A stretch of 64,000 nt of DNA from NCBI GenBank assembly GCA_030595125.1, contig JAUVDV010000001.1:43861-107860 (forward strand), in the 5' to 3' direction. The first letter of the stretch is position 1. Each line of letters starts with the position of its first letter. Source of the stretch: Deltaproteobacteria bacterium. GTDB taxonomy: Bacteria; Myxococcota_A; Polyangia; JAAYKL01. The notes beneath the pieces were generated by a model. The model made no database searches and was not told the origin of the DNA. It saw only the letters and a program-made list of their open reading frames with translations. Below are positions 39,376 to 57,113 of the stretch, one piece after another. The position numbers and the translations under genes are program-made.

Positions 39376-40722
39376 TTAGCGACGGCGGTGAGGATTGTCG
39401 ATATTGAGCTTCTTCATTTTTCGCCAGAGGGTCGTTGGCGAGAGACCGAGTGTATCGGCAGCCTGGTCGGTGGTGTCGTTGTGAACCAGGGCCGCCCGGA
39501 TGGCCTGGCGTTCCGCTGCGGCGACGATATCCTCCAGGGTCTGGTTGTCGGGTATTCCACCGTCACCGGGTTCGAGCAGGTCTACTATTTGCATTTCGCC
39601 GCCCACTGTGAGAGCGACGCCCTGTTCCATAAGGTTCTCGAGTTCGCGTACGTTCCCCGGGAAGTTGTAGGCGGTCAACCGCTCCAGCGCTCCCTTGCCG
39701 AGCCGTACGGGGCGGTCCATCTTTTTCGAGTACTTGTTTATGAAGTGCTCCACCAGTAACGGAATATCCTCGGGGCGCTCTTTCAGGGGAGGGATCCAGA
39801 AGCGCGCCACCGCGAGACGGTAGTATAGATCCTGGCGAAAACGCTTTTCGTTGATGGCCGTTTGCAGATCCTGGTTGGTGGCGGCGATGAGGCGGATGTC
39901 CACAGAAATGGACTTGTTGTCGCCCACCCGGCGGATCTCCTTTTCCTGGATGGCTCTCAGGAGTTTGGCCTGAAGGGCCGGCGAGGTTTCGCTGATCTCG
40001 TCGAAGAAGAACGTGCCGCCCTCGGCCTCCTCGAACAGGCCCCTGCGAGTGCTTACCGCTCCTGTGAACGCCCCCCGGGTGTGGCCGAATAGTTCGCTCT
40101 CCAGGAGCGTTTCGCTTATGGCGGCGCAGTTGACCGGGACGAAGGGCCGGTTCGAGCGCGAGGAGTTGGCGTGAATGGCCTTGGCGATGAGCTCCTTGCC
40201 GGTACCGCTTTCACCGGTGATGAGCACGGTGGTGTCAGTGGGTGCGATCTTGATGATGCGGGTGAGTATTTCCCTCATGGACTGGGATCGTCCGATGATA
40301 TTTTCGAACTTGTAGCGCTCCTTGAACTCCTGAGTGAGCAAGGAGACCTCCCCGGAGAGCCAGCGCCGCTCGAGCGCCTTGCCCACCTTGATGGTGAGTT
40401 CATCTTCGGAGAAAGGCTTTTGAATGTAGTCCCACGCGCCCAGTCTCATGGCCTCCACCGCGGTCTCGATGGTGCCATACGCGGTCATCACAATTGACTC
40501 GGTGAGGGGTGAAACCTCGCGGATGTGCCGAAGCACAGCTATCCCGTCCAGCTTTCCCATCCGAAGATCGGTGATAACCAGATCGTATGCTTCGTCGTCG
40601 ATGGCTTCACAGGCTTCAGAGCCGTCCTTGGCCTCCGCCACGTCGTGTCCCAAGCTGCGCAACATGATGGACAGCGTGGTGCGCATGTTTTTTTGATCGT
40701 CGACGATGAGAATGTGCGCCAC
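39376..40722 (-). CDS. Sigma54-dependent response regulator (NtrC/AtoC family)
   Basis: Receiver domain, GESGTGKE, ELFGH, GAFTGA, FPGNVREL, C-terminal Fis HTH. Confidence 0.93.
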   Translation of the reverse strand: MAHILIVDDQKNMRTTLSIMLRSLGHDVAEAKDGSEACEAIDDEAYDLVITDLRMGKLDGIAVLRHIREVSPLTESIVMTAYGTIETAVEAMRLGAWDYIQKPFSEDELTIKVGKALERRWLSGEVSLLTQEFKERYKFENIIGRSQSMREILTRIIKIAPTDTTVLITGESGTGKELIAKAIHANSSRSNRPFVPVNCAAISETLLESELFGHTRGAFTGAVSTRRGLFEEAEGGTFFFDEISETSPALQAKLLRAIQEKEIRRVGDNKSISVDIRLIAATNQDLQTAINEKRFRQDLYYRLAVARFWIPPLKERPEDIPLLVEHFINKYSKKMDRPVRLGKGALERLTAYNFPGNVRELENLMEQGVALTVGGEMQIVDLLEPGDGGIPDNQTLEDIVAAAERQAIRAALVHNDTTDQAADTLGLSPTTLWRKMKKLNIDNPHRRR

Positions 40723-40827
40723 TTTGCACTCCTCTGAAGAAATAAAAATTTGGTGACTTCATCCTGTATACCAGCCGGATCGATAGGCCACAACCCGAGC
40801 TATTTTTTCATTAGAGGATAGCGTTAC

Positions 40828-40855
40828 TTGACTTGCATTCAGCCGTGGATACATT
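40828..40855 (+). promoter_or_regulatory. Putative sigma70-type promoter of dnaK
   Basis: TTGACT-N16-TACATT upstream of AGGAGG RBS. Confidence 0.45.
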
Positions 40856-40909
40856 GAGGCCACTTCAGGAGGGGCGAAAGGCCTTTTCGGGGTTCTTAGG
40901 AGGAGCAAA

Positions 40910-42832
40910 ATGGGCAAGACAATAGGAATCGATCTTGGAACGACAAACAGTGTTGTTGCGGTCATCGAGGGCAAGGATCCGGTGATCATCTCCAATGAGG
41001 AGGGCGGGCGCACCACACCGTCGGTTGTGGCCTGGGACGACCAGGGCGAGATCCTCGTCGGCCAGATCGCCAAGCGACAGGCGATCACCAACCCCGAAAA
41101 CACGGTTTATTCCATCAAGCGTTTCATGGGTCGCAAGCAAGCCGAGGTCGGCGAAGAGATGTCCATGGTCCCCTACGACGTGACAAAGACGGCCAACGGG
41201 GATGCACACGTAAAAATCAAGGATCGGGACTATGCCCCGCCCGAGATCGCCGCCCGTATTCTCATGAAGCTCAAGAAAGCGGCTGAGGAGTACCTGGGCG
41301 AGCCGGTGACCGATGCGGTGCTCACCGTACCGGCCTACTTCAACGACTCCCAGCGTCAGGCCACCAAGGACGCGGGCAAGATCGCCGGCCTGGAGATCAA
41401 GCGCATAGTGAACGAGCCCACCGCGGCAGCGCTCGCCTACGGCCTCGACAAGAAGGCCGATGAAATCATCATTGTGTACGATTTCGGCGGCGGCACCTTC
41501 GATGTTTCCGTCCTGGAGGTCGGGGACAACGTGGTGCAGGTCATCTCCACCAACGGAGACACCCACCTGGGCGGCGACAATATCGATCAGATAATCATCG
41601 AGTACCTGGTGGCGGAGTTTAAAAAGGATCAGGGCATTGATGTGTCCGGGGACAAGATGGTATTGCAGCGGCTCAAGGAAGCCGCTGAGAAGGCAAAGAT
41701 CGACCTGAGCTCCCTGATGGAGACGCAGATCAATCTCCCCTTCCTCACCGCCGACGCCTCCGGGCCCAAACACCTCAACCTGCGTCTTTCCAGAGCCAAA
41801 TTCGAGTCGATGATCGGCGACGTTGTGGAGCGAACCCTCGCGCCGTGCCGCAGGGCCCTCGAGGACGGCAACAAACGGCCCGGAGATATAGATCAAGTGG
41901 TGCTCGTGGGCGGCTCAACGCGCATCCCGCTGGTGCAGCAGGCGGTGACCAAGTTCTTCGGCAAGGATCCCCACAAGGGTGTCAACCCGGACGAGGTGGT
42001 CGCCCTTGGTGCGGCAATCCAGGCCGGCGTGCTCTCCGGAGACGTCAAAGATCTGCTTTTGCTGGATGTGACGCCCCTGTCCCTAGGCGTGGAGACTCTC
42101 GGCGGGGTAATGACAACCATGATCACGCGCAACACCACCATCCCCGCAAAGAAGTCGGAGGTCTACTCTACCGCGGCGGACAGCCAGACCTCCGTGGAGA
42201 TTCACGTCCTCCAGGGGGAGCGGAGCATGGCCAAGGACAACAGGACCCTCGGGCGCTTTCACCTGGAGGGCATCATGCCGGCTCCACGGGGAGTCCCAAA
42301 GGTCGAGGTTACCTTCGATATCGACGCCAATGGGATTGTCAACGTTTCGGCCAAGGATATGGCCACGGGCAAGGAGCAGAAGATCACAATCACGGCCTCC
42401 TCGGGCCTGAAAGACGGGGAGATCGATAACATGGTCCAGGACGCCGAGAAGTACAAGGCGGAGGACGAGCAGCGCAAGAAGGATATCGAAACCAGGAACA
42501 AGGCCGAGCAGCTCGCCTACGCCACCGAGAAGACCCTCGAGGAGCACAGGGACAAGCTCCCGCAAGAGGAAGTGGCGAAGGTCGAGGGGGCCATCAAATC
42601 CCTGCGGGAGGTCATCGATTCCAACGACGCGTCGCGGATAGAGTCGGAAATGGAGAACCTCACCAAGGCGTCTCACAAGCTCGCGGAGCTGATGTATCAG
42701 GCGGCGGGAGCGAGCGTCGCCCCCGGAGCGGATCCCACGGACGGCGCCCCGGATCCGGGAGCTCCCGATCAGGCTGAAGAAGAGGGTGACAGCGACGTCA
42801 TCGACGCCGAGTTCGAGGAGAACAAACAGTAG
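40910..42832 (+). CDS. dnaK: Chaperone DnaK (Hsp70)
   Basis: [38 protein letters not shown]-terminal DVIDAEFEE. Confidence 0.98.
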
Positions 42833-42852
42833 CCCGCAGCATCCCCTGCCCG
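42782..42852 (+). repeat. 71-bp direct repeat, left copy (last 16 codons, stop and trailer of dnaK)
   Basis: 69/71 identical to 45049-45119. Confidence 0.95.
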
Positions 42853-42899
42853 TACTTCAAAAGAACCCCCCAATAATTCCGGTGAGTCGTTCTGATAAA

Positions 42900-42916
42900 A
42901 AAAGTGACTGGCACCG
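42900..42916 (+). repeat. AAAAGTGACTGGCACCG motif, copy 3 of 4
   Basis: Exact 17-mer also at 13506, 16094 and 45024. Confidence 0.9.
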
Positions 42917-42930
42917 AAAATGAAGAGAAA

Positions 42931-43941
42931 ATGGGGGAAATGGTAGATCCTAACGTTGAAAGAATGTTCGACGCGTTTTCAGTGCTGATCCTGGTTTCCG
43001 TGCTGTGTACCTTCGGATGTGCCAGTAAGGGCGCCGACGATGACTCCGACAGTGGGACTTCAGACAGTGATTCGGATACGGGCGATGTGCCTCCAAAGCG
43101 TATAGTCGCAATCGGCGACAATCACGCCGATCTTTCCCAGGCGCTCAAGGCTTTGCAAATAGGTGGAGTTATCGACCAGTCTCTCAACTGGATAGGTGGA
43201 GACACTATCGTGGTTCAGACAGGCGATATTCTAGATCGCGGCGTTGAGGAGTGGGAAGTCATCGATTTCTACGAGAACCTGAGACCCGAGGCCGAGGCGG
43301 CCGGCGGGCAAGTTGTCAATATGAACGGAAACCACGAGATCATGACCGCCTACGAGGATTATCGCTACTTTCAGGAAGAGGCGTGCGCAGCGTTCTCCGA
43401 TCTTACCGGCCTCGATACCAGCAACCCGGCGTTCGACGAGTTCACTGATGAAAATTGCAAATTGCGTGCGGCTGCATTCTGGCCCGGAGGCCCATACGCA
43501 CAGATAATAGCCAACTGGCTCATGGTTGCGGTGGTTCAGGACACGGTCTTCGTTCACGGCGGGGTTCACCAGAAGCACCTCGACTATGGAATCGATGAGA
43601 TCAACGCCATGACCAGGGCCTGGCTGATGGGGGAGGGAAATCTGGATTACAACCAAGTCGGCGGGGGTCCGGATGTGTTCTCGGTGGACTGGGACCGCAC
43701 CTACAGCGATGACGAAATTCCTCCGACAGCGGACCAATGCGACGATCTTGCCAGTGTTCTTGAGCAATTAGGAGTTGTGCGCATGGTCGTCGGTCACACG
43801 GTTCAGAGTCATATCAACACTGTCTGCGACGATATGGCGTGGCGCATCGATACGGGCATGGCCGTGTACTACGGTGGCGTGGTCGAGGTCATTGAAATTC
43901 TGGACGGAAACGTCAACGTATTGGTCGATTTGGCAGAATAG
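42931..43941 (+). CDS. Metallophosphoesterase lipoprotein (Shewanella-like phosphatase type); start uncertain
   Basis: AIGDNHAD, QTGDILDRG, GNHE, FVHGG, VVGHTVQ, RIDTGM; lipobox TFGC with short DS linker. Confidence 0.85.
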   Translation: MGEMVDPNVERMFDAFSVLILVSVLCTFGCASKGADDDSDSGTSDSDSDTGDVPPKRIVAIGDNHADLSQALKALQIGGVIDQSLNWIGGDTIVVQTGDILDRGVEEWEVIDFYENLRPEAEAAGGQVVNMNGNHEIMTAYEDYRYFQEEACAAFSDLTGLDTSNPAFDEFTDENCKLRAAAFWPGGPYAQIIANWLMVAVVQDTVFVHGGVHQKHLDYGIDEINAMTRAWLMGEGNLDYNQVGGGPDVFSVDWDRTYSDDEIPPTADQCDDLASVLEQLGVVRMVVGHTVQSHINTVCDDMAWRIDTGMAVYYGGVVEVIEILDGNVNVLVDLAE

Positions 43942-44018
43942 TTTTTACGCAATTGTGAATTGGCCTGATTGCTCCGAGATCTCCACGGTGCGAAGAAGTT
44001 TGTTATTGAGTGACTTAC

Positions 44019-44032
44019 GACCGCCGGCGGTC
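44019..44032. repeat. Perfect 14-bp palindrome GACCGCCGGCGGTC at transposase stop
   Basis: Read directly; subterminal hairpins are typical of HUH elements. Confidence 0.6.
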
Positions 44033-44966
44033 AGGCCGCGAGCTTGAATTTCGTGACAAGCGGCGGCCGGAACGTGCCCGGCGGGAACTCCACATCAAAA
44101 CATCCAGATCGAAAAGCCGCTGACGCTATGCGATGGGCCTTCACGATCTCCTTGTATTCCGCCTCGTACGCCTTGTAATCCTCTACTGTGTCAGCGTGAC
44201 AAAGAGGTTGGGGTGTCCGCTCCCGGGGAAGGATCGGCTTTGAGAATGGGCTCTCCTTTTCGATTCGCGCCATTCCTTTGATGTTCGTTATCCCCTCTGC
44301 CCTACGCTCTTTACGCGCCAGTTCTTCGTGATTGCGCACGATGTCGCGAAACCGCGCATGACGCGCGTCCTGGGAGAGATCCGTCCAACCGGGCAGCGGG
44401 TGAAGAACAACCTCTGTGTTCTTTGTGTATTTCGACGGGTCGATATCGTGGCGGTCAGCGCCGTTTTTCCACCAGAGGGTCCGGTCCACGTACTTGAACA
44501 CGAGTCGGCCTCCGCGAGAGAGCACCTCGGTCGTTGAGAAACCCTTCCACTGGTTCGCCTTTTCCACGAGGCCGTCCTTGACCACGTTGCACGCTCCGTA
44601 ACCGAGCAGTTTCTCCGCCTTGTTGTCGCTTGTTATCTCCTCGACCCGTACACGGCCTGCCCAGAAGTGCCCCTCTCGTCCGTAGAACCGGTTGAGATCT
44701 CTGGCCGCGCGCCCGGCGAACTCGCGTAAAAACGGGCTGACGTTGTCGGCCTGTCCCTCTCCGATGGAGAAGATGAGTTCCAGGTGGTTGATGTTGGTGG
44801 TTGCGCTATGCAGCAGGATCGGGTGCAGCTTCAGGGCCCTTCCCAGGCTCGAACCTATGATGTTGTTGACCTTTTTCGACGGCTTCAGGAGAAACATTCT
44901 GTCTGCGCAATTGAGTGTTGCGTGATACATTCCATTTTCTTTCCAGATTCTGATTCTTCGCGCCAT
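44031..44966 (-). CDS. HUH/Y1 (IS200/RAYT-like) transposase
   Basis: MARRIR..., YHATLNC, NH-L-E at the HUH position, REGHFWAGR, Y-x3-N-VVKDGLV, C-terminal FPPGTF. Confidence 0.8.
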   Translation of the reverse strand: MARRIRIWKENGMYHATLNCADRMFLLKPSKKVNNIIGSSLGRALKLHPILLHSATTNINHLELIFSIGEGQADNVSPFLREFAGRAARDLNRFYGREGHFWAGRVRVEEITSDNKAEKLLGYGACNVVKDGLVEKANQWKGFSTTEVLSRGGRLVFKYVDRTLWWKNGADRHDIDPSKYTKNTEVVLHPLPGWTDLSQDARHARFRDIVRNHEELARKERRAEGITNIKGMARIEKESPFSKPILPRERTPQPLCHADTVEDYKAYEAEYKEIVKAHRIASAAFRSGCFDVEFPPGTFRPPLVTKFKLAA

Positions 44967-45023
44967 ACTCCCTTAATCGGTCGCTCGACGGAAAAGTTGC
45001 CGAAATTCGTCCGCCGAGTGAAA

Positions 45024-45040
45024 AAAAGTGACTGGCACCG
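45024..45040 (+). repeat. AAAAGTGACTGGCACCG motif, copy 4 of 4
   Basis: Upstream of transposase start, 8 bp before the second dnaK-end copy. Confidence 0.9.
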
Positions 45041-45048
45041 AAAAAGGG

Positions 45049-45119
45049 GAGGGTGACAGCGACGTCATCGACGCCGAGTTCGAGGAGAATAAACAGTAGC
45101 CCGCAACATCCCCTGCCCG
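45049..45119 (+). repeat. 71-bp direct repeat, right copy (orphan dnaK 3' end)
   Basis: Encodes [16 protein letters not shown]; two substitutions relative to left copy. Confidence 0.95.
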
Positions 45120-45126
45120 CGTGAGC

Positions 45127-45564
45127 CTACCAGGTAATGGGTCCTCCACCGTGGCAACTCATTCCGGTGCAGGTCTGAGTTGAGGTGTCGTAGCTTCCGC
45201 TCCCTCCTGGAGCGATGTCCGGATTCTCATCCGTATGGGCCGTCTGGTCGGTTATCGAACCGGAACTGTCTACCATCGTATGACAGGTACTACAGCCCAT
45301 GGAGTGATCGCTATGGGAACCCGTATTGGGTGGATTTCCGTGACATGAATCACAGCCCAGATCGGTATCAGTGTCCGTATCAGTGTCCGTATCCGAATCG
45401 GTATCGCTGTCCGAATCGCTGTCTGAATCCGAGTCACCGTCCGAATCGGAGTCGCTGTCCGAATCGGTATCGCTGATGATGTCATCATCATCTCCACAAC
45501 CGGGTACAAAAACCAATCCAGGTGCCAGTAGTGTGGCCACAAATATGATCATCCATTTTCCCAT
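45127..45564 (-). CDS. Small c-type cytochrome lipoprotein with DS/DT linker (CxxCH x2, CxxxxCH x1)
   Basis: Lipobox VPGC; CDSCH, CSTCH, CTGMSCH; AAGGAGG RBS. Confidence 0.8.
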   Translation of the reverse strand: MGKWMIIFVATLLAPGLVFVPGCGDDDDIISDTDSDSDSDSDGDSDSDSDSDSDTDSDTDTDTDTDTDLGCDSCHGNPPNTGSHSDHSMGCSTCHTMVDSSGSITDQTAHTDENPDIAPGGSGSYDTSTQTCTGMSCHGGGPITW

Positions 45565-45654
45565 GAGAGCCTCCTTGAGACTATAAAAGAAGTAGACATT
45601 GCATTATTGCACAGTTTTTGGGGTTTGCAAGCCGAGCAAGCGCGATGGCGAGAT

Positions 45655-46428
45655 CTATATTTTCGAAAAGGAAGCTTCGATGATCTCTGCGAGTTGTTCC
45701 GTGGATTCCCACTGGGGCATGTGTCCAACCCCGGGAAGGACAACCAGGCGGGCTCCTCGGATCTCCCTGGCAAGTTCCTTGCCTTTGTCAATAGAGGCAA
45801 CCCGGTCTTCCGATCCGTGGACCACGGTGCAGGGACAGGAGATCTCGTGCAGTCTGGAACCAAAGTCGAAGCGTCCACACGCAGCACGTTGACCGGCAAT
45901 TCCTCGGCCCGTCGCCCGCCGTTCGATCCGTTCCGCGACAAGTGTCTCAAAATCATCTGCGCGATCCGAGCAGAAATACTCACCAACGCATACGGCGAGA
46001 GTCTCGCGAACGATTTCCTCAACCGGGCCTCTCGTGCGCCCCATGGCTGCAATCGCGTCCGGAGTTGATCCCAGGGCGTCGGATCGCCCGCCGCGCGCGG
46101 TACTCAGGAGGAGGAGCCCACTAACGGCTTCGGGGAAATCCGCAGCGATTTGCAACGCGATCAGCCCGCCCATGGAGTGTCCCACAACCCCAAATCGATC
46201 CATGTGGAGGGCTCTCGCCAGTCCAATGGTATCCGCAGCCATTTTCTCGATAGTGTACGGACCGTCGGGGGCGTCGCTCTTGCCGGAACCCCGGTTGTCC
46301 ACCAACACGCATGTAAACCGATCCCGAAGGAGCGTCGCGAGCGGGTTCCAGACGGTCAGGTCCAATCCCAGTCCGGCCAGGAAAATCAAAGGTGGTCCGT
46401 TACCGCTCACCTCGTGGTTGATCGTCAA
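45655..46428 (-). CDS. Alpha/beta hydrolase
   Basis: DNRGSGKSD, GHSMGG nucleophile elbow, HGSEDR, GVGH. Confidence 0.9.
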   Translation of the reverse strand: MTINHEVSGNGPPLIFLAGLGLDLTVWNPLATLLRDRFTCVLVDNRGSGKSDAPDGPYTIEKMAADTIGLARALHMDRFGVVGHSMGGLIALQIAADFPEAVSGLLLLSTARGGRSDALGSTPDAIAAMGRTRGPVEEIVRETLAVCVGEYFCSDRADDFETLVAERIERRATGRGIAGQRAACGRFDFGSRLHEISCPCTVVHGSEDRVASIDKGKELAREIRGARLVVLPGVGHMPQWESTEQLAEIIEASFSKI

Positions 46429-47262
46429 CTAGTGACCACTTCGCAAGTTCCGCAGCAGTCTGCCGAGGGGTCGAGAACGCAAGGGGCGTTCGAGGATCTC
46501 CGATGCGCCGCTCCCCTTTGCCGCGCGAACCACCTCCGGGGCCATGGTCAGGCTGGTGGCGACCACCTCGGTGGCGCTGGTGGCTTCGCTGGTGGTGAGG
46601 CTGCGGACAGCCGCGAATCCGTCAGCCTGACCCATGAAGAGGTCCAGGATGACGAGCCGGGGATGGAGCTGGCCGGCAACTATCAGAGCCTCCGGAATGG
46701 AGCGCGCCACGACACCGGCGATGCCGGTTCCCTCTCCGGAGAGGTTGGTGAAGACGTCTATGGTGGTGTCGTCGTCGTCCGCGAGCAATACCACTACGTC
46801 GCGGCCGTCCTCGGTCAGTCGGCGGGAGGAAGAGCCCCGCCTGAACAACCGCTCGTGCTTGAGCGCAGTACGCCTCGCGACTCTAGCCTCGGATCCGTCA
46901 GACGACACCAGGGTCATTGACTGACCGTTGGCCGGAAGGACGAGCTGCTCGCCAATGAAGCGCACGAACTCTCTCTCCTTGGACATGAGCTCCAGAGCCT
47001 CGCTCGCTGTCAGGTAGCCGGCGGCCACGTGTGACAGCACCGATATGTCGATGCCGAGGGACAGGGATAGGGCGAGAAGCCGGGCCGCGTCGTTGACCGC
47101 GATCTGACCGTGCTTCCAGCGACTCGTTCTGGCGCTCTCAAGTCCGATCATCCTTCCGAGTTCGGCGTCGCTCATCTTTTCGGATGTATCCAGATCGTCC
47201 GCCACGGTCCGCACCAGGAGAAACAGCTCCAGACTGCTCGGAAATAGTGGGATCTTGCTCAA
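46429..47262 (-). CDS. XRE-type HTH protein with C-terminal receiver domain
   Basis: SDAELGRMIGLESARTSRWKHG HTH; LLADDD...VILDLFM receiver; TTG start. Confidence 0.7.
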   Translation of the reverse strand: MSKIPLFPSSLELFLLVRTVADDLDTSEKMSDAELGRMIGLESARTSRWKHGQIAVNDAARLLALSLSLGIDISVLSHVAAGYLTASEALELMSKEREFVRFIGEQLVLPANGQSMTLVSSDGSEARVARRTALKHERLFRRGSSSRRLTEDGRDVVVLLADDDDTTIDVFTNLSGEGTGIAGVVARSIPEALIVAGQLHPRLVILDLFMGQADGFAAVRSLTTSEATSATEVVATSLTMAPEVVRAAKGSGASEILERPLRSRPLGRLLRNLRSGH

Positions 47263-47389
47263 CGGGTGCTCCTAAAAAAAGGTTACGTCGATGTTAAGGG
47301 TTCTAGAAGAACTATTTACTGTTGCAAAGTGGAAAATTAAAAGCGAGAAAGAGCCGGCGAGGGCTTTATTGTCGTAGAGGAACAAACCT

Positions 47390-48526
47390 ATGGCCGGCCG
47401 CAAGCGTGTAGCTGAAACAACAGAGGTTCTCCTTCAGGGCAACGTGGCCGTGGCGGAAGCCGCCATTGCCGTGGGATGCCGGTTCTTCGGCGGTTATCCG
47501 ATCACTCCTTCGAGCGAGATCATGGTTCGCATGGCCGAGTTGTTGCGCGCTGATGACGGCGTGTTCATACAAATGGAGGACGAGCTGGCCTCCATCTGCG
47601 CCGTGATCGGAGCTTCATGGAGCGGCGCAAAGTCGATGACAGCCACCTCCGGACCGGGCTTGAGCCTGATGCAGGAGGCCCTCGGCTACGCCTACTTCAC
47701 CGAAACCCCGCTTGTGTTGGTGGATATCCAGCGAGCCGGGCCCGCCACGGGACAGGCGACCCACGTGGGCCAGGGCGATATGATGCAGTTCAAGTACGGA
47801 TCCCACGGAGATGTGTTCCCCGTGGCTCTGGTCCCCTGGTCGGTGCAGGAGTGCTACGATCTCACCATCCGCGCGTTTAATCTCTCGGAGAAGTTCAGGG
47901 TGCCCGTCTTCCTCGCAGCCGACGAGGCCGTGGGACACCTGCGTGAGAACGTGGTGTTGCACAGGAATTTCGAGGTTGTGGATAGGATAAAAGAAGGAGC
48001 GGGCGATCCGTTCGGCTCACCGTTGCCGGATGGAGTTCCGATCATGCCGGCTTTTGGGGATGGCGGGCGCCTGATGGTGACCGGCTCAACCCATGACGGT
48101 CGGGGATTTCGAAAAGTGGACGATCCGGAAATACACGACACTCTCGTAACACGGTTGATGCGAAAGACTCTGGATCACGTGGACGAGATCGTGGAGGTCG
48201 AGGAATACATGCTCGACGATGCCGAGATTGCCTTTTTCGCGTACGGAGTCTCCGCCCGATCGGCGTTGGCGGCGGCGAAACGACTGCGCTCGAAGGGTGT
48301 CAAGGCCGGGCTGTTGCGGGCTCTGACCATCTGGCCGTTCCCGGAGAAACAGGTGACACAGCTCGGTGCGAGGGTGAAGACCATCGTGGTTCCAGAGCTG
48401 AACAAGGGTATGATAACCGGGGTGGCCCGGGGGTTCACCGGCACGCCGGTGCACGCTTTTGCGCAGACCAACGGGAAAATCATAGAGCCCGATAGCCTGG
48501 TGAAATTCGTGGAAGGGCTTCCATGA
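47390..48526 (+). CDS. korA: 2-oxoacid:ferredoxin oxidoreductase alpha subunit
   Basis: GYPITPSSEI, QMEDELAS, ATSGPGLSLM, QRAGPATG. Confidence 0.9.
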   Translation: MAGRKRVAETTEVLLQGNVAVAEAAIAVGCRFFGGYPITPSSEIMVRMAELLRADDGVFIQMEDELASICAVIGASWSGAKSMTATSGPGLSLMQEALGYAYFTETPLVLVDIQRAGPATGQATHVGQGDMMQFKYGSHGDVFPVALVPWSVQECYDLTIRAFNLSEKFRVPVFLAADEAVGHLRENVVLHRNFEVVDRIKEGAGDPFGSPLPDGVPIMPAFGDGGRLMVTGSTHDGRGFRKVDDPEIHDTLVTRLMRKTLDHVDEIVEVEEYMLDDAEIAFFAYGVSARSALAAAKRLRSKGVKAGLLRALTIWPFPEKQVTQLGARVKTIVVPELNKGMITGVARGFTGTPVHAFAQTNGKIIEPDSLVKFVEGLP

Positions 48527-49281
48527 CGCGCGATATGAACAAGTACCTGCGCGACGGGTTGCCCGGAACGCGCTTCTGTCCGGGGTGTGGGCATGGAATT
48601 CTCATGGGCGCGATCCTCAGGGCGGTCGACCGACTCGACGTGGCTCTGGACGATCTGCTGTTTGTCTCCGGAATCGGGTGCGCGGCGTGGATCCCCAGCC
48701 CCAACATAGGAACCGATACGCTCCATACGTTGCACGGGCGTGCGCTGGCTTTTGCCACCGGCGCCAAGCTCGCCAACCCGAAATTGACCACAATAGTTGC
48801 GTCGGGGGACGGGGATCTGACATCCATCGGGGGGAACCACCTTATTCACTCCGCGCGGCGCAACCTGGACGTCACCGTCATCTGCGCGAACAATCTGATC
48901 TACGGAATGACCGGCGGTCAAACAGCGTCAACCACACCGGTGGGAGCGCGCACATCCACCGATCCCGACGGGAACAATTTTCGGCCCTTTGATATCTGCA
49001 ACCTGGTGATGGCGTCCGGAGCCAGGTACGCCGCTCGTTTCCCGGTGACTCGCCCGAAGCAACTGATCGACGCCATCGAGAAGGCTCTGCGAATCGAGGG
49101 CTTCACCTTCGTAGAGGCGGTGAGTCCGTGTCCGACCCAGTTCGGACGCCGTAACTCGACGGCGGAAATCTCCGCGTTGTACGACAGCGTGGATTCCCAG
49201 TGTATCTCCCGGGCGGAGGCACAGACCATGGATGAGGACGAGCGATTGCGCCATTTCGTCGTTGGAGAGTTCGAACCATGA
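48523..49281 (+). CDS. korB: 2-oxoacid:ferredoxin oxidoreductase beta subunit
   Basis: FCPGCGHG, SGIGC, GDGD TPP motif, NNLIYGMTGGQ. Confidence 0.9.
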   Translation: MTRDMNKYLRDGLPGTRFCPGCGHGILMGAILRAVDRLDVALDDLLFVSGIGCAAWIPSPNIGTDTLHTLHGRALAFATGAKLANPKLTTIVASGDGDLTSIGGNHLIHSARRNLDVTVICANNLIYGMTGGQTASTTPVGARTSTDPDGNNFRPFDICNLVMASGARYAARFPVTRPKQLIDAIEKALRIEGFTFVEAVSPCPTQFGRRNSTAEISALYDSVDSQCISRAEAQTMDEDERLRHFVVGEFEP

Positions 49282-49838
49282 ACCACGCCATGAACAGATC
49301 TCCGGTTCAGGTGCGCATTGGCGGCGAGGCGGGCCAGGGCGTGATTCTCGCCGGCGTCATGCTGGCACAGGCGGCCATCGGGGATGGTCGCAAAGTGGCT
49401 CAATCCGCGCGTTACGGCGCAGCGGTTCGCGGTGGTGAGGCGACTGCGGATCTGGTTATCTCCGATACGCCTATCGATTATCCCCACGTGGAGACTCCGG
49501 ACATCCTAGTGGTCTTTTCCCAGCAGACTTACGACAAATTCGCGCCGGCCGGGACCGGAGATACAAAAGTGTTCTACGATCCGTTTTTCGTCACGCCGTC
49601 GAAGACCGCCGGGGGCAGCCTCTGGGAGATCTCCGCCACCGAGATGGCCATCGAGAAGTTCGGCAAGAGCACCTCTTCCAATCTGATCGTCCTGGGTTTC
49701 ATCGCACAGCTCACGGAGGTGGTATCGGAGGAAAGCCTGCTCGCCGCTATCGAGCAAAACCTCCCGTCCAGGCACCGCGCTGCGGGTCTCGAGGCGCTTG
49801 CGATGGGAAAAAAGGCGGCTGTGGAGGCAGGTGCATGA
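49278..49838 (+). CDS. korC: 2-oxoacid:ferredoxin oxidoreductase gamma subunit
   Basis: IGGEAGQGVILAG, YGAAVRGG, NLIVLG. Confidence 0.88.
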   Translation: MNHAMNRSPVQVRIGGEAGQGVILAGVMLAQAAIGDGRKVAQSARYGAAVRGGEATADLVISDTPIDYPHVETPDILVVFSQQTYDKFAPAGTGDTKVFYDPFFVTPSKTAGGSLWEISATEMAIEKFGKSTSSNLIVLGFIAQLTEVVSEESLLAAIEQNLPSRHRAAGLEALAMGKKAAVEAGA

Positions 49839-51190
49839 GCGGCGGCAGGACCCACAGGCCACAACGCGATTCGGCCAAATGCATGGTCTGCGGCGGGTGC
49901 ACGTGGCAGTGCCCGGCAACGGTTTTTCCCAGCCTGAGGAGCGAGGAGGGATCTCTGAGGGGTGAGATCTACAGCTCAAAAGAGTTTCCCGGCGAGATGG
50001 CCGACCGTCCTCCCTGCGTGATGGCGTGCCCCCTGGGTCAGGATGTCCCGGGATATATCAGCGCCATAGCGCGGAATGACGTGGACGAGGCTGCAATTAT
50101 TGTTCGCAGGACCAACGCCCTGCCATCCGTGTGCGGCCGTGTCTGCATCGCCTCCTGCATGAGGGCCTGCACAAGGGCGAGAATCGACATGGGCGTGGAC
50201 ATTCGCTCGCTGAAACGCTTTGCCGTGCACGTGGCCGCGGAGGCGCAAGTTGAAACGAATGTCGGGGCCGGCTCGGTGGCGATTATCGGATCCGGCCCGG
50301 CAGGTCTGGCGGCGGCCCACAGATTGAACCAGCTGGGTGTTCGATCGGTGGTGTTCGATGCGGGCTCGACTCCGGGTGGTTCAATGACGGACACGGTGCC
50401 GCGATTCGTTCTGCCCCGTGAGATGGTGGCAAAGGACGCGGCCCGCCTGGTACGGATGGGTGTCGATATTCGTTCGGGAACTCGCATCGGGGAGGACATA
50501 TCCTTTTGCGACCTGGAGTCTTCATATGAGGCCGTGCTGGTAGCTACCGGGGCGCGACGGGATCTGGCGGCTGCGTTTCGAGGATCAGAGCTGAAGAATA
50601 TTGTCGGCGCTGCGGAGTACTGCCGAAACGAACGGAAGATGGACGGCGTGGTGGTTGTGAACGGTGGTGGTCCGTCGGCGGTGCAGGCGGCCCGATTGGC
50701 CGTGCGGCTCGGCGCCCGGAGCGTATCAGTGATCCACCCTGCGCCCCTGGAACAGTGGCCGGCGGGGGATCACGCCCTTGGGCTTGCGCGCGAAGAAGGT
50801 GTTGAGGTTCGCCCCACGCATCGAATAGTGGAAGCGCAGGGTCAAGACGGGATCCTCACGGCGGTGATGGTGAAGGCCGTCAAGGCCGATAACGCGGACG
50901 AGGTTGGCAGGTACAAGCTCGCTTCCCGCGGCGCGGTCGAGCAGCTGGAGGCGGGGCTCCTGATCGTGGCCGGCGAGCGGAGATCATCGACCGAGGACCT
51001 GCCCGATCTCGACGGCATTACACGCGGGGTACTCGGTAATCTACTGATCGACGAAGAGTATCGCCTCGGGCGGGAGCGCTGGTACGCGGCCGGCGAGTGT
51101 GCGACCGGAGCAGCCACGGTGGTCGATTCAATGGCCACCGGGAGGCTTGCGGCCGAGACTATTCATCGCGATCTCGAGTTGGGAAAGTAA
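49835..51190 (+). CDS. GltD/SudA-like FAD/Fe-S oxidoreductase with extra N-terminal ferredoxin motif
   Basis: CMVCGGCTWQCP; PPCVMACP; CGRVCIASCMRAC; IIGSGPAGLAAA. Confidence 0.8.
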   Translation: MSGGRTHRPQRDSAKCMVCGGCTWQCPATVFPSLRSEEGSLRGEIYSSKEFPGEMADRPPCVMACPLGQDVPGYISAIARNDVDEAAIIVRRTNALPSVCGRVCIASCMRACTRARIDMGVDIRSLKRFAVHVAAEAQVETNVGAGSVAIIGSGPAGLAAAHRLNQLGVRSVVFDAGSTPGGSMTDTVPRFVLPREMVAKDAARLVRMGVDIRSGTRIGEDISFCDLESSYEAVLVATGARRDLAAAFRGSELKNIVGAAEYCRNERKMDGVVVVNGGGPSAVQAARLAVRLGARSVSVIHPAPLEQWPAGDHALGLAREEGVEVRPTHRIVEAQGQDGILTAVMVKAVKADNADEVGRYKLASRGAVEQLEAGLLIVAGERRSSTEDLPDLDGITRGVLGNLLIDEEYRLGRERWYAAGECATGAATVVDSMATGRLAAETIHRDLELGK

Positions 51191-53850: not shown

Positions 53851-54774
53851 GTGAGATTGCGACACGATAAACCGTCCCGCAGAAAGTTTTTCGGCGATTG
53901 CGCCGTCGCGGTGGCCGCCGTCGGGGTGGGCGCGGCAGTGGGTTGTGCGGGGGAGACCGACCGGGCAAAAGCGGAGGCTCCGGGGACCCATCACGAGCCG
54001 GGTGAATGGTGGACCGAGGGCCGTTACGTGGTTCACCGAACGGTCGATGCATCCAGGCTCAATGATGGTCTGTTGAGAGCCAGAATCGACGGCTCCTGGC
54101 GTGACGTATCGGTGGTGAACCTTCCGGACAGGTTTGTGCGATGGAGTTTCGAGGAGAGGATAGCCCGCCTTGCAAAGCTGGCCGCCGTGGGGTTCGATAC
54201 CAGAGATCTGGACGGGCCCCACAACGCGTGCGTGGCCACATACGGAGGCTGGAGTCGCGACTCGGCGTTCTCCCTCAACACAGCCTACAAGGGGATGGGG
54301 TTCACGCCTACCGAGGAGAGGCTTCCGGGCACTCTCGACGAACTTGGGGAAGAGTCGGAGCGGATCCGCAGGGCGTCCAGGGGCGATTTCATGGCCGACA
54401 TGCGTGAGAAGATCAAGTTTCTGGCCGGTCTCTACAACGACGCGAGCCGCTTCGATATGACCAGGCAGGTCTCCCTCGAGCTCTTTACGGAGCCGGGATA
54501 TGCCACGCACACTTTTCTGAACATGATGGCCAACCCCATCGTCTCCGCGTCGTTCCTGGCCTATCCGACCTTTGAGATACGGGCGGTTCCGCAGCTCCTG
54601 CACCCGGAAAACCCCGCGCTCACGCCTCACGAGCGGAACGTTGTTCGCTACACGAACGCGATTCACGATTTCGTTCACGGTGGTACGGGGGATCGGATGA
54701 CCTGCATCTACCACATTTGCGAGGTGTTCGACGACACGCCTAACAAGGGTGGAGCGGGCACGCGGCTTGTCTGA
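53851..54774 (+). CDS. Tat-signal (lipo)protein, probable FMN-binding split-barrel family
   Basis: SRRKFF twin-arginine, AVGC lipobox; HNACVAT...LNTAYKGMG...SLELF...HTFLN...FDDTP pattern. Confidence 0.55.
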   Translation: MRLRHDKPSRRKFFGDCAVAVAAVGVGAAVGCAGETDRAKAEAPGTHHEPGEWWTEGRYVVHRTVDASRLNDGLLRARIDGSWRDVSVVNLPDRFVRWSFEERIARLAKLAAVGFDTRDLDGPHNACVATYGGWSRDSAFSLNTAYKGMGFTPTEERLPGTLDELGEESERIRRASRGDFMADMREKIKFLAGLYNDASRFDMTRQVSLELFTEPGYATHTFLNMMANPIVSASFLAYPTFEIRAVPQLLHPENPALTPHERNVVRYTNAIHDFVHGGTGDRMTCIYHICEVFDDTPNKGGAGTRLV

Positions 54775-54804
54775 CGTCATGTGACAAGTGATGGGTATTG
54801 ACCC
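54719..54804 (+). repeat. 86-bp direct repeat, left copy (3' end and trailer of 53851 gene)
   Basis: 82/86 identical to 56417-56502. Confidence 0.95.
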
Positions 54805-54836
54805 CTTTCCTTTCCGGATAGAAGCGGGTTACTAAT

Positions 54837-56357
54837 TCAGGGATCTCTGCGTCCATTCAGTTTCATCATTGCCAAATGAGCGGCCCTGAACCACCGGGGG
54901 GTTCTTAAGTGGGCTTCGCGGATGGAGGGTGTTGTCAGAAACGACTTATCGATGAAGTTTCGAGCTTCTTCCCGGGGAGAGATACCGCCGCATGTAAAAG
55001 GGCGATACAAATGAATGACGTCTTCGTTGCCGGGATAGTCTCCCATCATTATCTCAAATTCTTCGGCCCGTTGTGCAAGTTCGCAGTACTTGGGAAGGTT
55101 GAACAACGACAGGTTCATGAAATCCACATCGGAGGAGTTGCTTTCAATGAGATCGAGAGTCGCTTGCCGGTGCTCAGACGTTTCGCCCGGTAAGCCGAAC
55201 AAAAGATACAGATAAGTACGGATACCCGCGGCTGCAGCTTGTCGAATTGTTTCTGCCGATTCTTTTGCGCGTAGCCCTTTATCGAAACGGTCGAGCAAAT
55301 TGTCGCTTCCACCCTCTACACCCAATTGCAGCATCAACAATCCGGCCTCAGCGGCATCTTCGAGCAGCCCGTCTCGCGTGAGTTCTTCAGAGGGCCGAGC
55401 GAATCCGTAGAACTTTACTCCGTACTCACGGGCCGCAGGAAGAAATTGTCGTAGTCTTTTGGGGGGAATTGCCGAGTCCAGCAAATGAACGATGGGTCTG
55501 CGTTCAATAATGTCATTGGGTATGGAACTCAGGAATTGTGTGTACGATGATTCGGGCACTTTGACGAAGGGCATCTCCCTGTCCGGGCAAAAAAGGCAGC
55601 GGCGCCAGTAACAACCAGTGGACAGGGTGAATGGAACAACGGGGTGGGCACTCAGGTAGGGCAGACTGCTTACAAGCGTAGGCCAGGAGATTCTATCCCA
55701 AAAACCCAGTTCGTTTTGATTGGGGATCAGTGATGCCCCGTTGGACAAATCGATTGTTCCAAGTACTTTATGAAGCGCATCGAGTCCATGCCCGGTCGTA
55801 GCGAGGCTGCGAGGGAGTGATCCTCCAATTATGGGTTCAATACCTCTCTGTTTGAGAAATGAAACCAAGTCGATTGTTGAAGCCAGCTGTGACAGATATG
55901 CCAATGAGATAAGAACATGTTTGGGCTTTATCTCATTGAGCACTGGTTCCAGGCGTTCCTCCCATAGTTGTGAAAATGGGTTGGCACCGTTGGAAAGCCG
56001 GTCGGCTAGTGCAGACGGATCGTGTACGTGTTCCGGCGAAGTAATGTCCATGAAAGTGAGTTTCCAGCCGGAATTGATGTTCGAATACTGTTTGAGTTGC
56101 TTGTGCAATGAGCCGGCTGCGGTTCTGTGCCGCATCGGGTCGTATCCGGTTTTCATGTTCAGCAGATACTGCACCGAGTTTTCAACAGCCGCAGTTTTTA
56201 TTTCGGGATGATCGAGGGTTTGATGAAAGAACTCCAGCGAGAGATCAAAAAGGCCGGCGTCATAGCCGTTTCCGGTCAAACCCGCTGCCAGTATGAAAGC
56301 TCCGGAAGGGGGTTCTGCCGGAGTGCACACAGGTCCGGAGAGTACAAGATACTCCAT
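54837..56357 (-). CDS. Radical SAM protein with B12-binding-like N-terminus
   Basis: GCYWRRCLFC (CxxxCxxC), LQLGVEGGS, YLLFGLPGET; lower GC than flanks. Confidence 0.85.
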   Translation of the reverse strand: MEYLVLSGPVCTPAEPPSGAFILAAGLTGNGYDAGLFDLSLEFFHQTLDHPEIKTAAVENSVQYLLNMKTGYDPMRHRTAAGSLHKQLKQYSNINSGWKLTFMDITSPEHVHDPSALADRLSNGANPFSQLWEERLEPVLNEIKPKHVLISLAYLSQLASTIDLVSFLKQRGIEPIIGGSLPRSLATTGHGLDALHKVLGTIDLSNGASLIPNQNELGFWDRISWPTLVSSLPYLSAHPVVPFTLSTGCYWRRCLFCPDREMPFVKVPESSYTQFLSSIPNDIIERRPIVHLLDSAIPPKRLRQFLPAAREYGVKFYGFARPSEELTRDGLLEDAAEAGLLMLQLGVEGGSDNLLDRFDKGLRAKESAETIRQAAAAGIRTYLYLLFGLPGETSEHRQATLDLIESNSSDVDFMNLSLFNLPKYCELAQRAEEFEIMMGDYPGNEDVIHLYRPFTCGGISPREEARNFIDKSFLTTPSIREAHLRTPRWFRAAHLAMMKLNGRRDP

Positions 56358-56416
56358 TTGGGGAAACTACATTGCCTGCACAAGGTGCTCAACAATAATT
56401 CTCATCCTTAGAAAAA

Positions 56417-56502
56417 GCGAGGTGTTCGACGACACGCCTAACAAGGGTGGAGCTGGCACGCGGCTCGTCTGACGTTATGTGACAAGTGATGAGTATTGAC
56501 CC
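56417..56502 (+). repeat. 86-bp direct repeat, right copy
   Basis: Encodes EVFDDTPNKGGAGTRLV*; both coding-part substitutions are synonymous. Confidence 0.95.
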
Positions 56503-56514
56503 TGTGGTCCTGTA

Positions 56515-56982: not shown

Positions 56983-57113
56983 TGAACTTGATCGTTGGAA
57001 CGAAAAGCGCGTCGGCGGATGACATATCTTAATGCCTGTGCGTTTTCGCATGCGCACGAGCCAACACACTCATAGTGATCGCAGCAGCACAGTAACAGAA
57101 AGCTTCGAAGGGC

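Follow-up and report, generated by a model that had tools for sequence, protein, structure and literature searches.

Repeats that restore the end of a gene are typical of integrase att sites; an integrase-borne island rebuilds the 3′ end of its target gene through such a direct repeat. Insertion sequences of the IS200/IS605 family, which belong to the Y1 superfamily, carry subterminal hairpins but neither terminal inverted repeats nor target duplications, whereas IS91/ISCR elements, with a Y2 Rep protein, have one precise and one skippable end and likewise make no duplication. RAYT/TnpA-REP genes lie between inverted copies of a short repeat with GTAG-footed hairpins, further copies of which are dispersed over the genome; an excerpt of Bertels (2017; PMC5581495) describes RAYTs as genes that mostly occur in one copy and are inherited vertically. 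In Chlamydomonas reinhardtii, Replitron-1 and some Helitrons are presented in parts of Craig (2023; PMC10288648) as HUH elements with one “fuzzy” end, where additional sequence is found, and target-site duplications of variable length; those parts call the signature non-canonical, give its cause as unknown and include one case of a 2-bp duplication. As far as that account goes, these elements differ from the one described here in being eukaryotic, in having an HUH protein of the Rep class rather than the Y1 type, and in having terminal repeats that are direct, not inverted.

The window analyzed here, a stretch of 64,000 nucleotides, belongs to a 5.39-Mb draft genome of 203 contigs (G000), and two genomes of the same genus (G001 and G002) served for comparison. 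Within it, the 3′ end of an intact dnaK gene (40910..42832, plus strand; a 640-aa open reading frame) is the duplicated target. As far as the stop codon, the gene was 92–93% identical at the nucleotide level to its counterparts in G001 and G002; past this point the three trailers were all different. A 71-nt duplication of the dnaK end (69/71) had been reported in an earlier note on this DNA; a repeat search of the window recovered it and extended it to a direct repeat of 76 nt (42777-42852 and 45044-45119; 72/76, or 95%), the 71-nt core being 97.2% identical. The repeat contains the final 16 dnaK codons, the stop codon, and a 20-nt trailer, and only two copies of it were found in the whole genome. 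The left copy (DR-L, 42777..42852, plus strand) forms the functional end of dnaK, while the right copy (DR-R, 45044..45119, plus strand) is a dead dnaK end that continues into the native downstream gene. The latter (45127..45564, minus strand) encodes a cytochrome-like lipoprotein with CxxxxCH/CxxCH motifs (TIGR01904, E 3.3e-6, 26.8 bits against a cut-off of 27) and has its stop codon 7 nt past DR-R; it was probably the original convergent neighbor of dnaK. A search for a full-length homolog of this protein in G001 and G002 found none. The empty site that the note had led us to look for, with dnaK directly beside the cytochrome-like gene, was seen in no other genome, and nine dnaK loci of other genera had no such cytochrome-like gene within 1.5 kb. 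In addition, the 24-mer AAAAAAAGTGACTGGCACCGAAAA occurred exactly twice in the window (42897-42920 and 45021-45044), and none of 100 shuffles gave two matches. The two 17-mers already noticed, the second of them 8 nt before the repeat, proved to be part of this identical pair; the 17-nt core ends 8 nt ahead of the 71-nt repeat core.

Each repeat copy was spanned, with unique sequence on both sides, by a public metagenome contig: L075 (96% identical) extends from the RAYT gene through the phosphatase gene, the 24-mer, and the left repeat into the body of dnaK, and L071 (95%) from a hydrolase gene through the cytochrome-like gene, the right repeat, and the 24-mer into the RAYT gene. Contigs assembled at k = 31 from four runs of two studies together contained the junctions, although they broke within the 41-nt stretch where the repeat copies match exactly and by themselves did not fix the phase. 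Such breaks would permit either pairing, and the genome is a draft of 203 contigs, which would suit an artifact in which dnaK stands beside the cytochrome-like gene and a 2.27-kb circle exists separately, or in which two strains form a chimera. This explanation is most improbable, because L075 and L071 each carry one repeat copy between the expected flanks, the depth in run X1 was even (16–18x over three contigs), and 4 positions distinguish the two repeat copies. Thus, misassembly, a concern raised earlier, does not account for the structure, which is real and carried by independent assemblies.

Between the repeats lie a gene for a phosphatase lipoprotein and a convergent open reading frame of the Y1 type, as had been read from the sequence before. 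The latter (44031..44966, minus strand) encodes 311 aa. Its residues 4-141 matched the NCBIfam model REP_Tyr_transpos (NF047646) with an E-value of 3.7e-9 and 36.6 bits, under the 80-bit cut-off, and a Pfam search gave no matches even at E<=10; the Pfam profile Y1_Tnp (PF01797) was matched by 6 of 27 aligned relatives, and JGI records label relatives as “REP element-mobilizing transposase RayT.” The family profile matched E. coli TnpA-REP (4er8) with an E-value of 1.7e-4, with both the HUH region and the tyrosine motif (Y..NPVK.G.V) in alignment. The core of the protein thus shows significant profile similarity to the Y1 superfamily, and RAYT/TnpA-REP is its best sequence relative. Residues H61 and Y123 were invariant in the 27 sequences, and Y123 aligned with the tyrosine motif of 4er8, whose tyrosine at this position we take to be the catalytic one. 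The HUH motif, however, reads H-L-E: close relatives have E at residue 63, and H occurs there only in part of the most distant sequences. The lack of the second histidine, which sets the protein apart from RAYTs, makes its catalytic activity uncertain. The protein also differs from RAYTs in its size (about 311 aa), which includes ~170 aa of a conserved C-terminal domain. The dN/dS values of the gene (0.11–0.17) indicated purifying selection. Judged by these alignments, the protein is a distant relative of RAYT/TnpA-REP and of the Y1 type; IS91/ISCR was considered only as an analogy for the imprecise right side of the element.

The gene is part of an insertion-sequence family of ~1.2 kb with REP-like inverted ends, which resembles IS200/IS605 in superfamily and in being a small one-gene element. 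One end (TIR-L) is the 24-mer and the other (TIR-R) is AAAATGTG(A/T)CTGGCACTGATCG; the inverted ends measure 17–24 nt and both contain a GTGACTGGCAC / GTGTCTGGCAC core. In the 5.39-Mb genome, the 13-nt core had 37 exact matches and 12 with a single mismatch, and the 17-mer was found in 49 copies at up to 2 mismatches. Inverted copies of the repeat thus border the gene, and further copies are dispersed over the genome, as in RAYT systems, in a number that is modest against classical REPs; the repeats are terminal inverted repeats and not GTAG-footed hairpins. Hairpins had been proposed at both element ends, but the end regions, folded as single-stranded DNA on both strands, showed no stability beyond that of shuffled sequence (z +0.32 to -0.78), which also distinguishes the element from IS200/IS605. 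At dnaK, TIR-L is the second 24-mer (M2, 45021..45044, plus strand), which abuts DR-R; homology between element copies stops here in six of the seven aligned copies, and in the seventh, from G002, at a CGGTGCC common to its target. The RAYT unit common to the G001 and G002 copies (43986..45044, minus strand) was 89.6% identical to L020 3159-4217 and 88.0% identical to L021 3171-4226, both at other loci. Its own TIR-R is gone: the unit breaks at an internal CGCACCG, whereas canonical copies run ~190 nt further to TIR-R.

The other 24-mer (M1, 42897..42920, plus strand), an exact copy of 45021-45044 and thus of the TIR-L end, is joined to the native upstream region of the phosphatase gene via a common CCGAAAA; G002 has ...AACCGAAAATGAAGGG upstream of this gene, without the 17-mer. 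To its left, 42853..42896 (plus strand) reads as ~24 nt of “fuzzy” sequence followed by a degenerate inverted terminal-repeat copy (CCGGTGAGTCG at 42879-42889), which is the layout of the TIR-R side of the G001 and G002 copies and would mark the left boundary of the inserted block. Together with M1, it makes up a MITE-like doublet (fold of -6.2 kcal/mol, z -1.70; 10/200 shuffles fold equally well).

The phosphatase gene (42940..43941, plus strand; Pfam Metallophos, 3e-11) had been regarded as imported cargo. Its orthologs in G001 and G002, 90–92% identical, are located between dnaK and the same hydrolase gene, and their dS (0.20–0.34) is close to that of dnaK; from this comparison the phosphatase gene is a native neighbor now enclosed by the repeats. 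The presence of a RAYT unit without its own TIR-R and of a native gene between two element ends makes the block composite, and it looks like one that moved locally. A by-eye alignment with the phosphatase–hydrolase junction of G001 and G002 suggests that 43942..43985 (plus strand), with CGAGATCTCC at 43975-43984, is a remnant of a former convergent overlap of these two genes. Downstream, 45655..45690 (no strand assigned) may weakly be read as a scar marking where the block previously lay: CGAAAAGGAAG (45664-45674) is similar to the sequence upstream of the phosphatase gene, CGATGATCTC (45678-45687) is similar to 43975-43984, and the final ~6 native codons of the hydrolase gene are gone, with homology to G001 and G002 resuming at 45672; these resemblances are of only ~10 nt. 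Alternatively, the real insertion may be 43986-45671, consisting of the RAYT unit, 76 nt of “templated filler” copied from the nearby dnaK end, and the cytochrome-like gene, placed into the phosphatase–hydrolase junction, with dnaK and the phosphatase gene always adjacent except for a lost variable gene. Exactly 43937-45671 is extra relative to G001 and G002, where the phosphatase gene keeps its place and the cytochrome-like gene is absent; moreover, the short resemblances CGAGATCTCC / CGATGATCTC flank the segment, and fillers are known at other junctions of the element. We nevertheless consider this unlikely, given that both ends of 42853-45043 resemble canonical element ends, as at other duplicated loci, and that it would leave two separate events unexplained, namely the doublet at 42853-42920 and the disappearance of the variable gene.

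Copies of the element 88–90% identical to the unit at dnaK were found at other loci in G001 and G002, with at least five copies of the RAYT gene in G001. Since the gene occupies different loci in G000, G001, and G002, it is neither single-copy nor immobile as RAYTs mostly are, and empty sites were found in G000 for the insertions of G002/L073, L072, L074, and L071. The dS of the RAYT gene is like that of host genes, which suggests largely vertical inheritance with movement inside genomes; comparison of the loci thus supports a mobile element. The proposed inspection of the flanks of transposase homologs revealed similar duplications: six of the nine distinct subfamily loci had one of at least 61 nt in at least one genome, with 61–142 nt of local target, usually a gene 3′ end. 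Besides dnaK (76 nt, 95%), these were the C95 site (91 nt, 97%), the C134 site (L073, ~93 nt, 91%; G002, just 25 nt), the C166 site (at least 142 nt, 99% in G001), C26/C383 of G001 (61 nt, 100%), and the C198 site (111 nt, 86%). These long duplications separate the element from RAYTs and, along with its inverted ends, from IS200/IS605. Of the remaining three, C114 had no long duplication, only 10 nt or less that was not distinguishable from microhomology; C118 had none and lacked 4.7 kb that is present in G000; and at C398 of G001 the second repeat copy was not found in an assembly that is 86% complete. At the C166 site, L074 had a 75-nt filler and no duplication, where G001 has 142 nt, so duplications can be lost or can arise after insertion. 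A more distant element (G009, 40% protein identity) had a 17-nt repeat at the same position, and a family scan of 1.5-kb flanks found a repeat at the canonical position in only 4 of 31 loci, many of which are cut by contig ends. The junctions showed tandem stutter and microhomologies between element end and target (CCGAAAA, CGGTGCC, CTGATCGTTT). In the other duplicated loci the right repeat always continued into native downstream DNA. The target gene end was regenerated at dnaK, as claimed before, but not at every locus, as one has two codons in place of the last four.

These loci also bear on the reading of the repeats as att sites of an integrase island, or as the product of site-specific integration of a circle bearing the dnaK end. 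Once formed, repeats of at least ~60 nt could allow excision and re-integration by homologous recombination. However, the absence of an integrase gene noticed earlier held between the repeats, both flanks (40029-42832 and 45672-50000) were collinear with G001 and G002 and no larger island was seen, and elsewhere the element is bracketed by a different local repeat at every locus, hence there is no fixed target or att site. The att-site reading is therefore very improbable.

Whether the enzyme itself makes the duplications is a different matter. The Y1 enzyme might nick both target strands at GCACCG-like sites 20–140 nt apart and join the ends, gap filling then producing a true target-site duplication of long and variable length. 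In line with this, the repeat directly abuts TIR-L in the copies of G000, G001:C397, G002/L073, G001:C80, and L072, targets show GGC..G or CGGTGCC resemblances at this joint, the unit in G000 is broken at an internal CGCACCG resembling a cleavage site, and what was inserted is exactly the TIR-bounded element with another 13–64 nt. Yet 13 further gene-end duplications of 54–114 nt surround inserted genes in G000 without a RAYT gene or the 17-mer, an empty site being confirmed in a relative for one of them. The same footprint at these loci indicates that the duplication step is probably not Y1 chemistry. Furthermore, the TIR-R side is imprecise; stutter and filler at the junctions are typical of polymerase slippage; a paralogous element in G000 (C22, C57; 37% protein identity) with perfect 22-nt inverted ends had no flanking repeat within 8 kb; and the subfamily lacks the second HUH histidine. 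A duplication made by the Y1 enzyme thus seems improbable to us. The earlier idea of an HUH element with unusual duplications stands insofar as these recur with the element, whereas their attribution to it is weakened by the RAYT-free loci; the duplication step probably reflects a lineage-wide, microhomology-guided insertion route.

We give about an even chance to the reading that an insertion into a short convergent dnaK/cytochrome spacer left the 76-nt repeat as its footprint, a composite block having been integrated in a non-canonical way through template switching. The inserted block would measure 2.19 kb (42853-45043) and be bounded by the two ends of the ~1.2-kb element family, TIR-L abutting the repeat on the right, and the fuzzy stretch with the degenerate TIR-R following the repeat on the left. 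Most likely, the block would have hopped ~0.6 kb from the phosphatase–hydrolase junction to the dnaK end. Element ends would join the target at microhomologies, often with tandem stutter, and roughly 0–142 nt of target would be re-copied, possibly by replication-coupled switching of the template to a copy of the element and back again; such junctions do not fit “peel and paste,” the precise single-strand mode of IS200/IS605. Re-copying that includes a stop codon would leave the upstream gene intact, and such events would be retained by selection. The enzyme would probably only define and release the element at its ends, while the host route duplicates the target.

More tentatively, and with somewhat less confidence than in the footprint at dnaK, we suggest that this lineage has an undescribed insertion route that re-copies 50–140 nt of target and lands mostly in the spacer after a gene, the end of which is thereby duplicated and kept, and that RAYT-like elements ride it or drive it in trans and capture neighbors via a stray end. 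If true, RAYT relatives would be transposons that are active, can carry cargo, and leave a new insertion signature; the route would also explain how single accessory genes slip between conserved genes.

A repeat search identified a single long local direct repeat at the 3′ end of dnaK, with copies at 42777–42852 and 45044–45119 (76 nt, 95% identity). When the region was compared by BLAST with the complete draft genome (G000; 5.39 Mb in 203 contigs), the 71-nt core of this repeat was returned as two copies with 97.2% identity and nowhere else, which bears out the recurrence of the dnaK end described in the earlier note. The dnaK ORF (40910–42832) encodes 640 aa, and the left copy consists of its last 16 codons, the stop codon, and 20 nt of the trailer. 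The repeats enclose a Metallophos lipoprotein gene (hereafter, the phosphatase gene) and a convergent 311-aa ORF (44031–44966, reverse strand) related to the REP-associated tyrosine transposases (RAYTs). On the 3′ side of the right repeat lie a gene for a small CxxxxCH/CxxCH cytochrome-like lipoprotein (26.8 bits, with a cut-off of 27) and then an alpha/beta hydrolase gene. An identical 24-mer is present at 42897–42920 and 45021–45044 (0 of 100 shuffles had two matches), and its right copy continues directly into the right repeat. Short palindromes exist where terminal hairpins had been noticed; however, the single-stranded DNA folds were no stabler than dinucleotide shuffles (z from +0.32 to −0.78). 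The search of Rfam at E ≤ 0.1 gave no match in 42000–46500.

The evidence used here is entirely comparative, and the genomes are metagenome-derived drafts. Logan k=31 contigs from four runs of two studies together contain the junctions, and the depth in run X1 was even (16–18x); these contigs break off within the 41 nt over which the repeat copies are identical and, therefore, do not fix its phase. The assembly was settled by two public metagenome contigs. In L075 (96% identical), the RAYT gene, the phosphatase gene, the 24-mer, the left repeat, and the body of dnaK follow one another; in L071 (95%), the order is hydrolase gene, cytochrome gene, right repeat, 24-mer, and RAYT gene. Past the RAYT gene (L071 3426–4265), the latter contig contains a canonical copy of the inverted other end of the element (TIR-R), followed by DNA of the G000 contig segment C114:24149–23482. 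One element copy of the same-genus genome G001 has its other end at this same C114 locus. Thus, L071 represents either two element copies joined in a chimeric contig or a second copy in that strain.

Comparison with two same-genus genomes showed that dnaK is followed by a 587-aa secreted protein, the phosphatase, and a convergent hydrolase in G001, and by a 341-aa lipoprotein, the phosphatase, and a convergent hydrolase in G002. In G000, the phosphatase gene is followed by the reverse-strand RAYT gene, the copy of the dnaK end, and the reverse-strand cytochrome and hydrolase genes. Homology to both relatives reaches the dnaK stop codon and restarts at 45672, the phosphatase is 90–92% identical to its orthologs, and 43937–45671 is extra in G000 relative to both. 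From these gene orders and homology limits, it follows that the locus contains neither an island nor an integrase and that the phosphatase is the native neighbor. The earlier proposal that the element carried this gene as imported cargo is therefore probably incorrect. The slot between dnaK and the phosphatase gene is hypervariable within the genus (L018 6830–8593 in G001, L019 6722–7747 in G002, and 42853–42939 in the window): the Cys-rich 587-aa protein of G001 and the 341-aa lipoprotein of G002 that occupy it are unrelated, and in G000 it contains just a doublet of element ends, 68 nt long. No full-length homolog of the cytochrome gene was found in G001 or G002. An empty dnaK/cytochrome site was sought and not found, and full-length homologs of the cytochrome were located only in G005 and G003, away from dnaK; the other matches were to its signal peptide and Asp-Ser linker. 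Asp-Ser/Asp-Thr linker repeats (45270–45480 and 43040–43080 in the window) occur at more than 100 loci per genome, are found behind the signal peptide of lipoproteins in a great many genes across this bacterial family, and swamp DNA and protein searches.

The 311-aa ORF matched no Pfam family, even at E ≤ 10, and a phmmer search of the single sequence against PDB gave a chance match only. The NCBIfam model REP_Tyr_transpos matched residues 4–141 with an E-value of 3.7e-9, but the score did not reach the cut-off of the family. We retrieved 77 homologs of about 311 aa, most of them on contigs of 1.0–1.7 kb; JGI labels several of these as “REP element-mobilizing transposase RayT”. When 27 sequences were aligned, H61 and Y123 were invariant and a C-terminal domain (PLCH ... 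DVEFPPGTFRPP) was conserved; the second HUH position was Glu in close relatives, with His found solely in some of the most distant sequences. The profile of this alignment matched E. coli TnpA-REP (4er8) with an E-value of 1.7e-4 and both motifs aligned, and 6 of the 27 matched Pfam Y1_Tnp. TnpA-Y1 subclasses that lack REP association and have a large C-terminal domain have been described (Quentin 2018, PMC6006769). Between three same-genus copies of the RAYT-like gene, dN/dS was 0.11–0.17 and dS was 0.36–0.43, the dS of dnaK being 0.30–0.34. The gene is thus constrained by purifying selection and approximately as old as the split of the species.

The sequence 43986–45044 was found again at other loci of G001 and G002 with 88–90% identity; a scan of genome contigs for the element returned the same copies only. 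The homology of seven aligned copies stops at the 24-mer on the 5′ side of the gene (TIR-L), and its other limit in canonical copies lies about 190 nt beyond the stop codon, where a related motif stands in inverted orientation, AAAATGTG(A/T)CTGGCACTGATCG. The element is a defined unit, bounded by these ends, that has moved. The RAYT-like family is common in this bacterial family, with matches (E ≤ 1e-20) in 16 of 21 genomes and up to 11 in a single genome, often at contig ends. A paralogous element in G000 (C22:3395–4661 and C57:8629–9895; loci L002 and L003) is 1268 bp long, with 37% protein identity and 89% identity between its two copies; its inverted ends, CCCAAGCGTGCCAGACACATTT, are perfect over 22 nt and contain the variant core GTGTCTGGCAC. 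No flanking duplication was found within 8 kb of it.

The 17-mer core of the 24-mer, AAAAGTGACTGGCACCG, is a dispersed REP-like repeat with 49 sites in G000 at up to two mismatches; the window copies include 13506–13522 and 16094–16110. Its 13-nt core has 37 exact and 12 one-mismatch copies, and the two-mismatch class was no commoner than scrambled controls. Fourteen copies of the 17-mer lie in a conserved context of about 55 nt (TAACATCATGAAATAAATGAAGAAT, the 17-mer, and TTTCAGGGGG), and others form tandem arrays at 22–23-nt spacing or inverted doublets with the variant GTGTCTGGCAC; the 17-mer is also found singly. A sigma-54 promoter (TGGCAC) was considered for the 17-mer and dropped, since no TTGC occurs at the required spacing. 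An IS200-like TnpA with the canonical HVHVFV motif (C91:17080–17727) has copies of another REP-like repeat on either side (CCCGCGGGTGTAAAACCCGCGGCC core, 27 genomic copies of at least 35 nt), and a repeat of about 50 nt (TCCCCTTCCCCCTCGCAGGGGAAGG...) is highly multicopy in G000, G001, and G002, for example at L092 1427–1486 (C32 of G000) and dozens of other loci.

Nine distinct loci of this element subfamily were located (coordinates are those of G000 where the site is present), and many of the insertions are accompanied by long duplications of variable length. At the dnaK end, the duplication is 76 nt (G000 and L071/L075). At C95:14282–14376, the G001 copy is flanked by 91 nt (97%), covering the last ~30 codons and the stop codon of a gene. 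C134:32442–32523 is a clean empty site in G000, and the duplication there is about 93 nt in L073 and 25 nt plus diverged sequence in G002. At C166:7176/7181, G001 (C80/C150; L053 and L060) has 142 nt (99%) next to TIR-L, with the second copy at a contig end, and L074 (2410–2490) has no duplication and a 75-nt filler of 17-mer-like fragments. The 61-nt duplication (100%) at C26/C383 of G001 ends 4 codons short of a stop codon, so the gene acquires two new final codons. At C198:24135–24165, L072 has 111 nt (86%), and at C114:24149, the duplication in G001 and L071 does not exceed 10 nt, which match the tail of TIR-R. At C118, L077 has no duplication and lacks 4.7 kb relative to G000. At C398 of G001, the second copy was not found; a search for second copies of the TIR-L flank at G001 C398 and C435 gave none. 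The corresponding position of a distant element in G009 (40% protein identity) is taken by a repeat of 17 nt.

The junctions are marked by microhomology, stutter, and filler. TIR-L is usually abutted directly by the repeat, 13–64 nt of extra sequence lie outside TIR-R, and the element end and the target have 7–11 nt in common at the joint. Tandem stutters are frequent, one being the threefold CTTGAGAGCGGTGCC of L073. The “fuzzy” end of the G002 copy was checked for an origin from the parental flank; its outer edge carries a repeat of about 49 nt (ATTTTATTGGCAGGCTGGCGAATTATGCAGGCTAGGG) that is multicopy in G000.

A self-comparison of G000 for same-strand repeats of at least 40 nt and at least 85% identity, 150–6000 nt apart, yielded 64 pairs, from which tandem paralogs, Asp-Ser linker repeats, and multicopy REP-like units were set aside. 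Besides dnaK, 13 direct-repeat pairs of 54–114 nt remained, 12 of them strictly two-copy and one three-copy. One lies in the window (54719–54804/56417–56502, around a 506-aa ORF), and the others are C52:54305/55257, C55:36216/37302, C178:37714/39643, C71:26239/27173, C61:8324/10139, C80:58383/60013, C186:47919/49146, C69:8155/9497, C32:20929/21772, C75:20913/22665, C100:13877/15878, and C43:42518/43362. Each pair encloses one or two whole genes, mutually unrelated, and neither the 17-mer nor a RAYT lies within any of them. In most cases, the repeat extends over the 3′ end of a flanking gene, typically its last codons, stop codon, and trailer; this gene and the one past the insert are often in convergent orientation. 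The C32 locus has a clean empty site in G001; for the window locus (54219–57002), C80, C52, and C186, the flanks of the relatives were not collinear. The junctions of the 13 pairs showed no common motif. Ku (PF02735) was not found in the 95%-complete genome, which is weak negative evidence against NHEJ as the source of the duplications. Since the 13 pairs are free of the RAYT and the 17-mer, long gene-end duplication is not peculiar to the RAYT element, and the pairs look as if genes were inserted throughout this genome by a process that duplicates long stretches of the target. The interpretation first proposed is partly supported: a RAYT-like element that is mobile and carries a long duplication of a gene end is upheld by the copies and duplications at other loci, whereas a duplication specific to HUH elements is improbable. 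Alternatively, the Y1 enzyme itself may nick the target with a stagger and so produce the duplications beside the element.

Both borders of the block 42853–45043 look like element borders beside a duplication: the right one is TIR-L, and the left one has about 24 nt followed by a degenerate TIR-R (CCGGTGAGTCG). The RAYT unit at this locus lacks its own TIR-R and breaks at an internal CGCACCG. The first 24-mer meets the upstream region of the phosphatase gene via CCGAAAA, which is native in G002 without the 17-mer, and the phosphatase gene in G000 is followed by a piece of the old phosphatase/hydrolase overlap. In the simplest history, the order of events may have been as follows: a doublet of element ends was inserted upstream of the native phosphatase gene, the RAYT unit was then inserted at the phosphatase/hydrolase junction, and the stretch between the outer ends later moved about 0.6 kb into the dnaK/cytochrome spacer, with 76 nt duplicated. 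Faint resemblances at 45664–45687 could be a scar of the earlier position of the block. In another reading, the insertion would be 43986–45671, and the right repeat would be templated filler.

With regard to the mechanism, we suggest that the Y1 protein defines and releases the unit and that integration proceeds by a polymerase-based template switch, in which the new strand would copy the target up to a point, continue on the element, and return to the target at a microhomology. The return would often be upstream, so that a stretch is copied twice, and returns that delete the end of a neighboring gene would be eliminated by selection. Other single-stranded DNA could enter by the same route, which would account for the duplications without a RAYT. 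The composite history of the dnaK locus, taken together with template switching, seems to us evenly poised between right and wrong.

It is widely held that RAYTs are domesticated and do not move, and that HUH single-strand transposons leave the target unduplicated. The former are described as mostly single-copy and vertically inherited (Bertels 2017, PMC5581495), IS200/IS605 elements as having neither inverted ends nor larger target duplications (Nunvar 2010, PMC2817692), and HUH transposases as generally producing no duplication; the exceptions named, which are unexplained, are Replitron-1 and some Helitrons of Chlamydomonas, whose ends are fuzzy and whose duplications vary (Craig 2023, PMC10288648). 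We found no report in the open-access literature of a bacterial RAYT/IS200-type element with target duplications of variable length. By its sequence, the present element is of the Y1/RAYT type. It does not show the defining behavioral features of either RAYTs or IS200/IS605 elements, and in its insertion signature it behaves as Replitron-1 does.

In conclusion, a RAYT-like gene lies within a TIR-bounded unit that has moved repeatedly and is under purifying selection, and the unit is often flanked by long, variable duplications that leave the upstream gene intact. These results challenge two textbook statements on this enzyme class and indicate a testable, possibly lineage-wide, insertion route. 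If real, this route would be a bacterial counterpart of the unexplained insertions of some eukaryotic HUH elements that combine a fuzzy end with a duplication of variable length. It would make insertions beside essential genes such as dnaK tolerable and allow their later precise removal by recombination between the repeats, and it may account for the entry of single accessory genes into the spacers behind conserved genes in this lineage.
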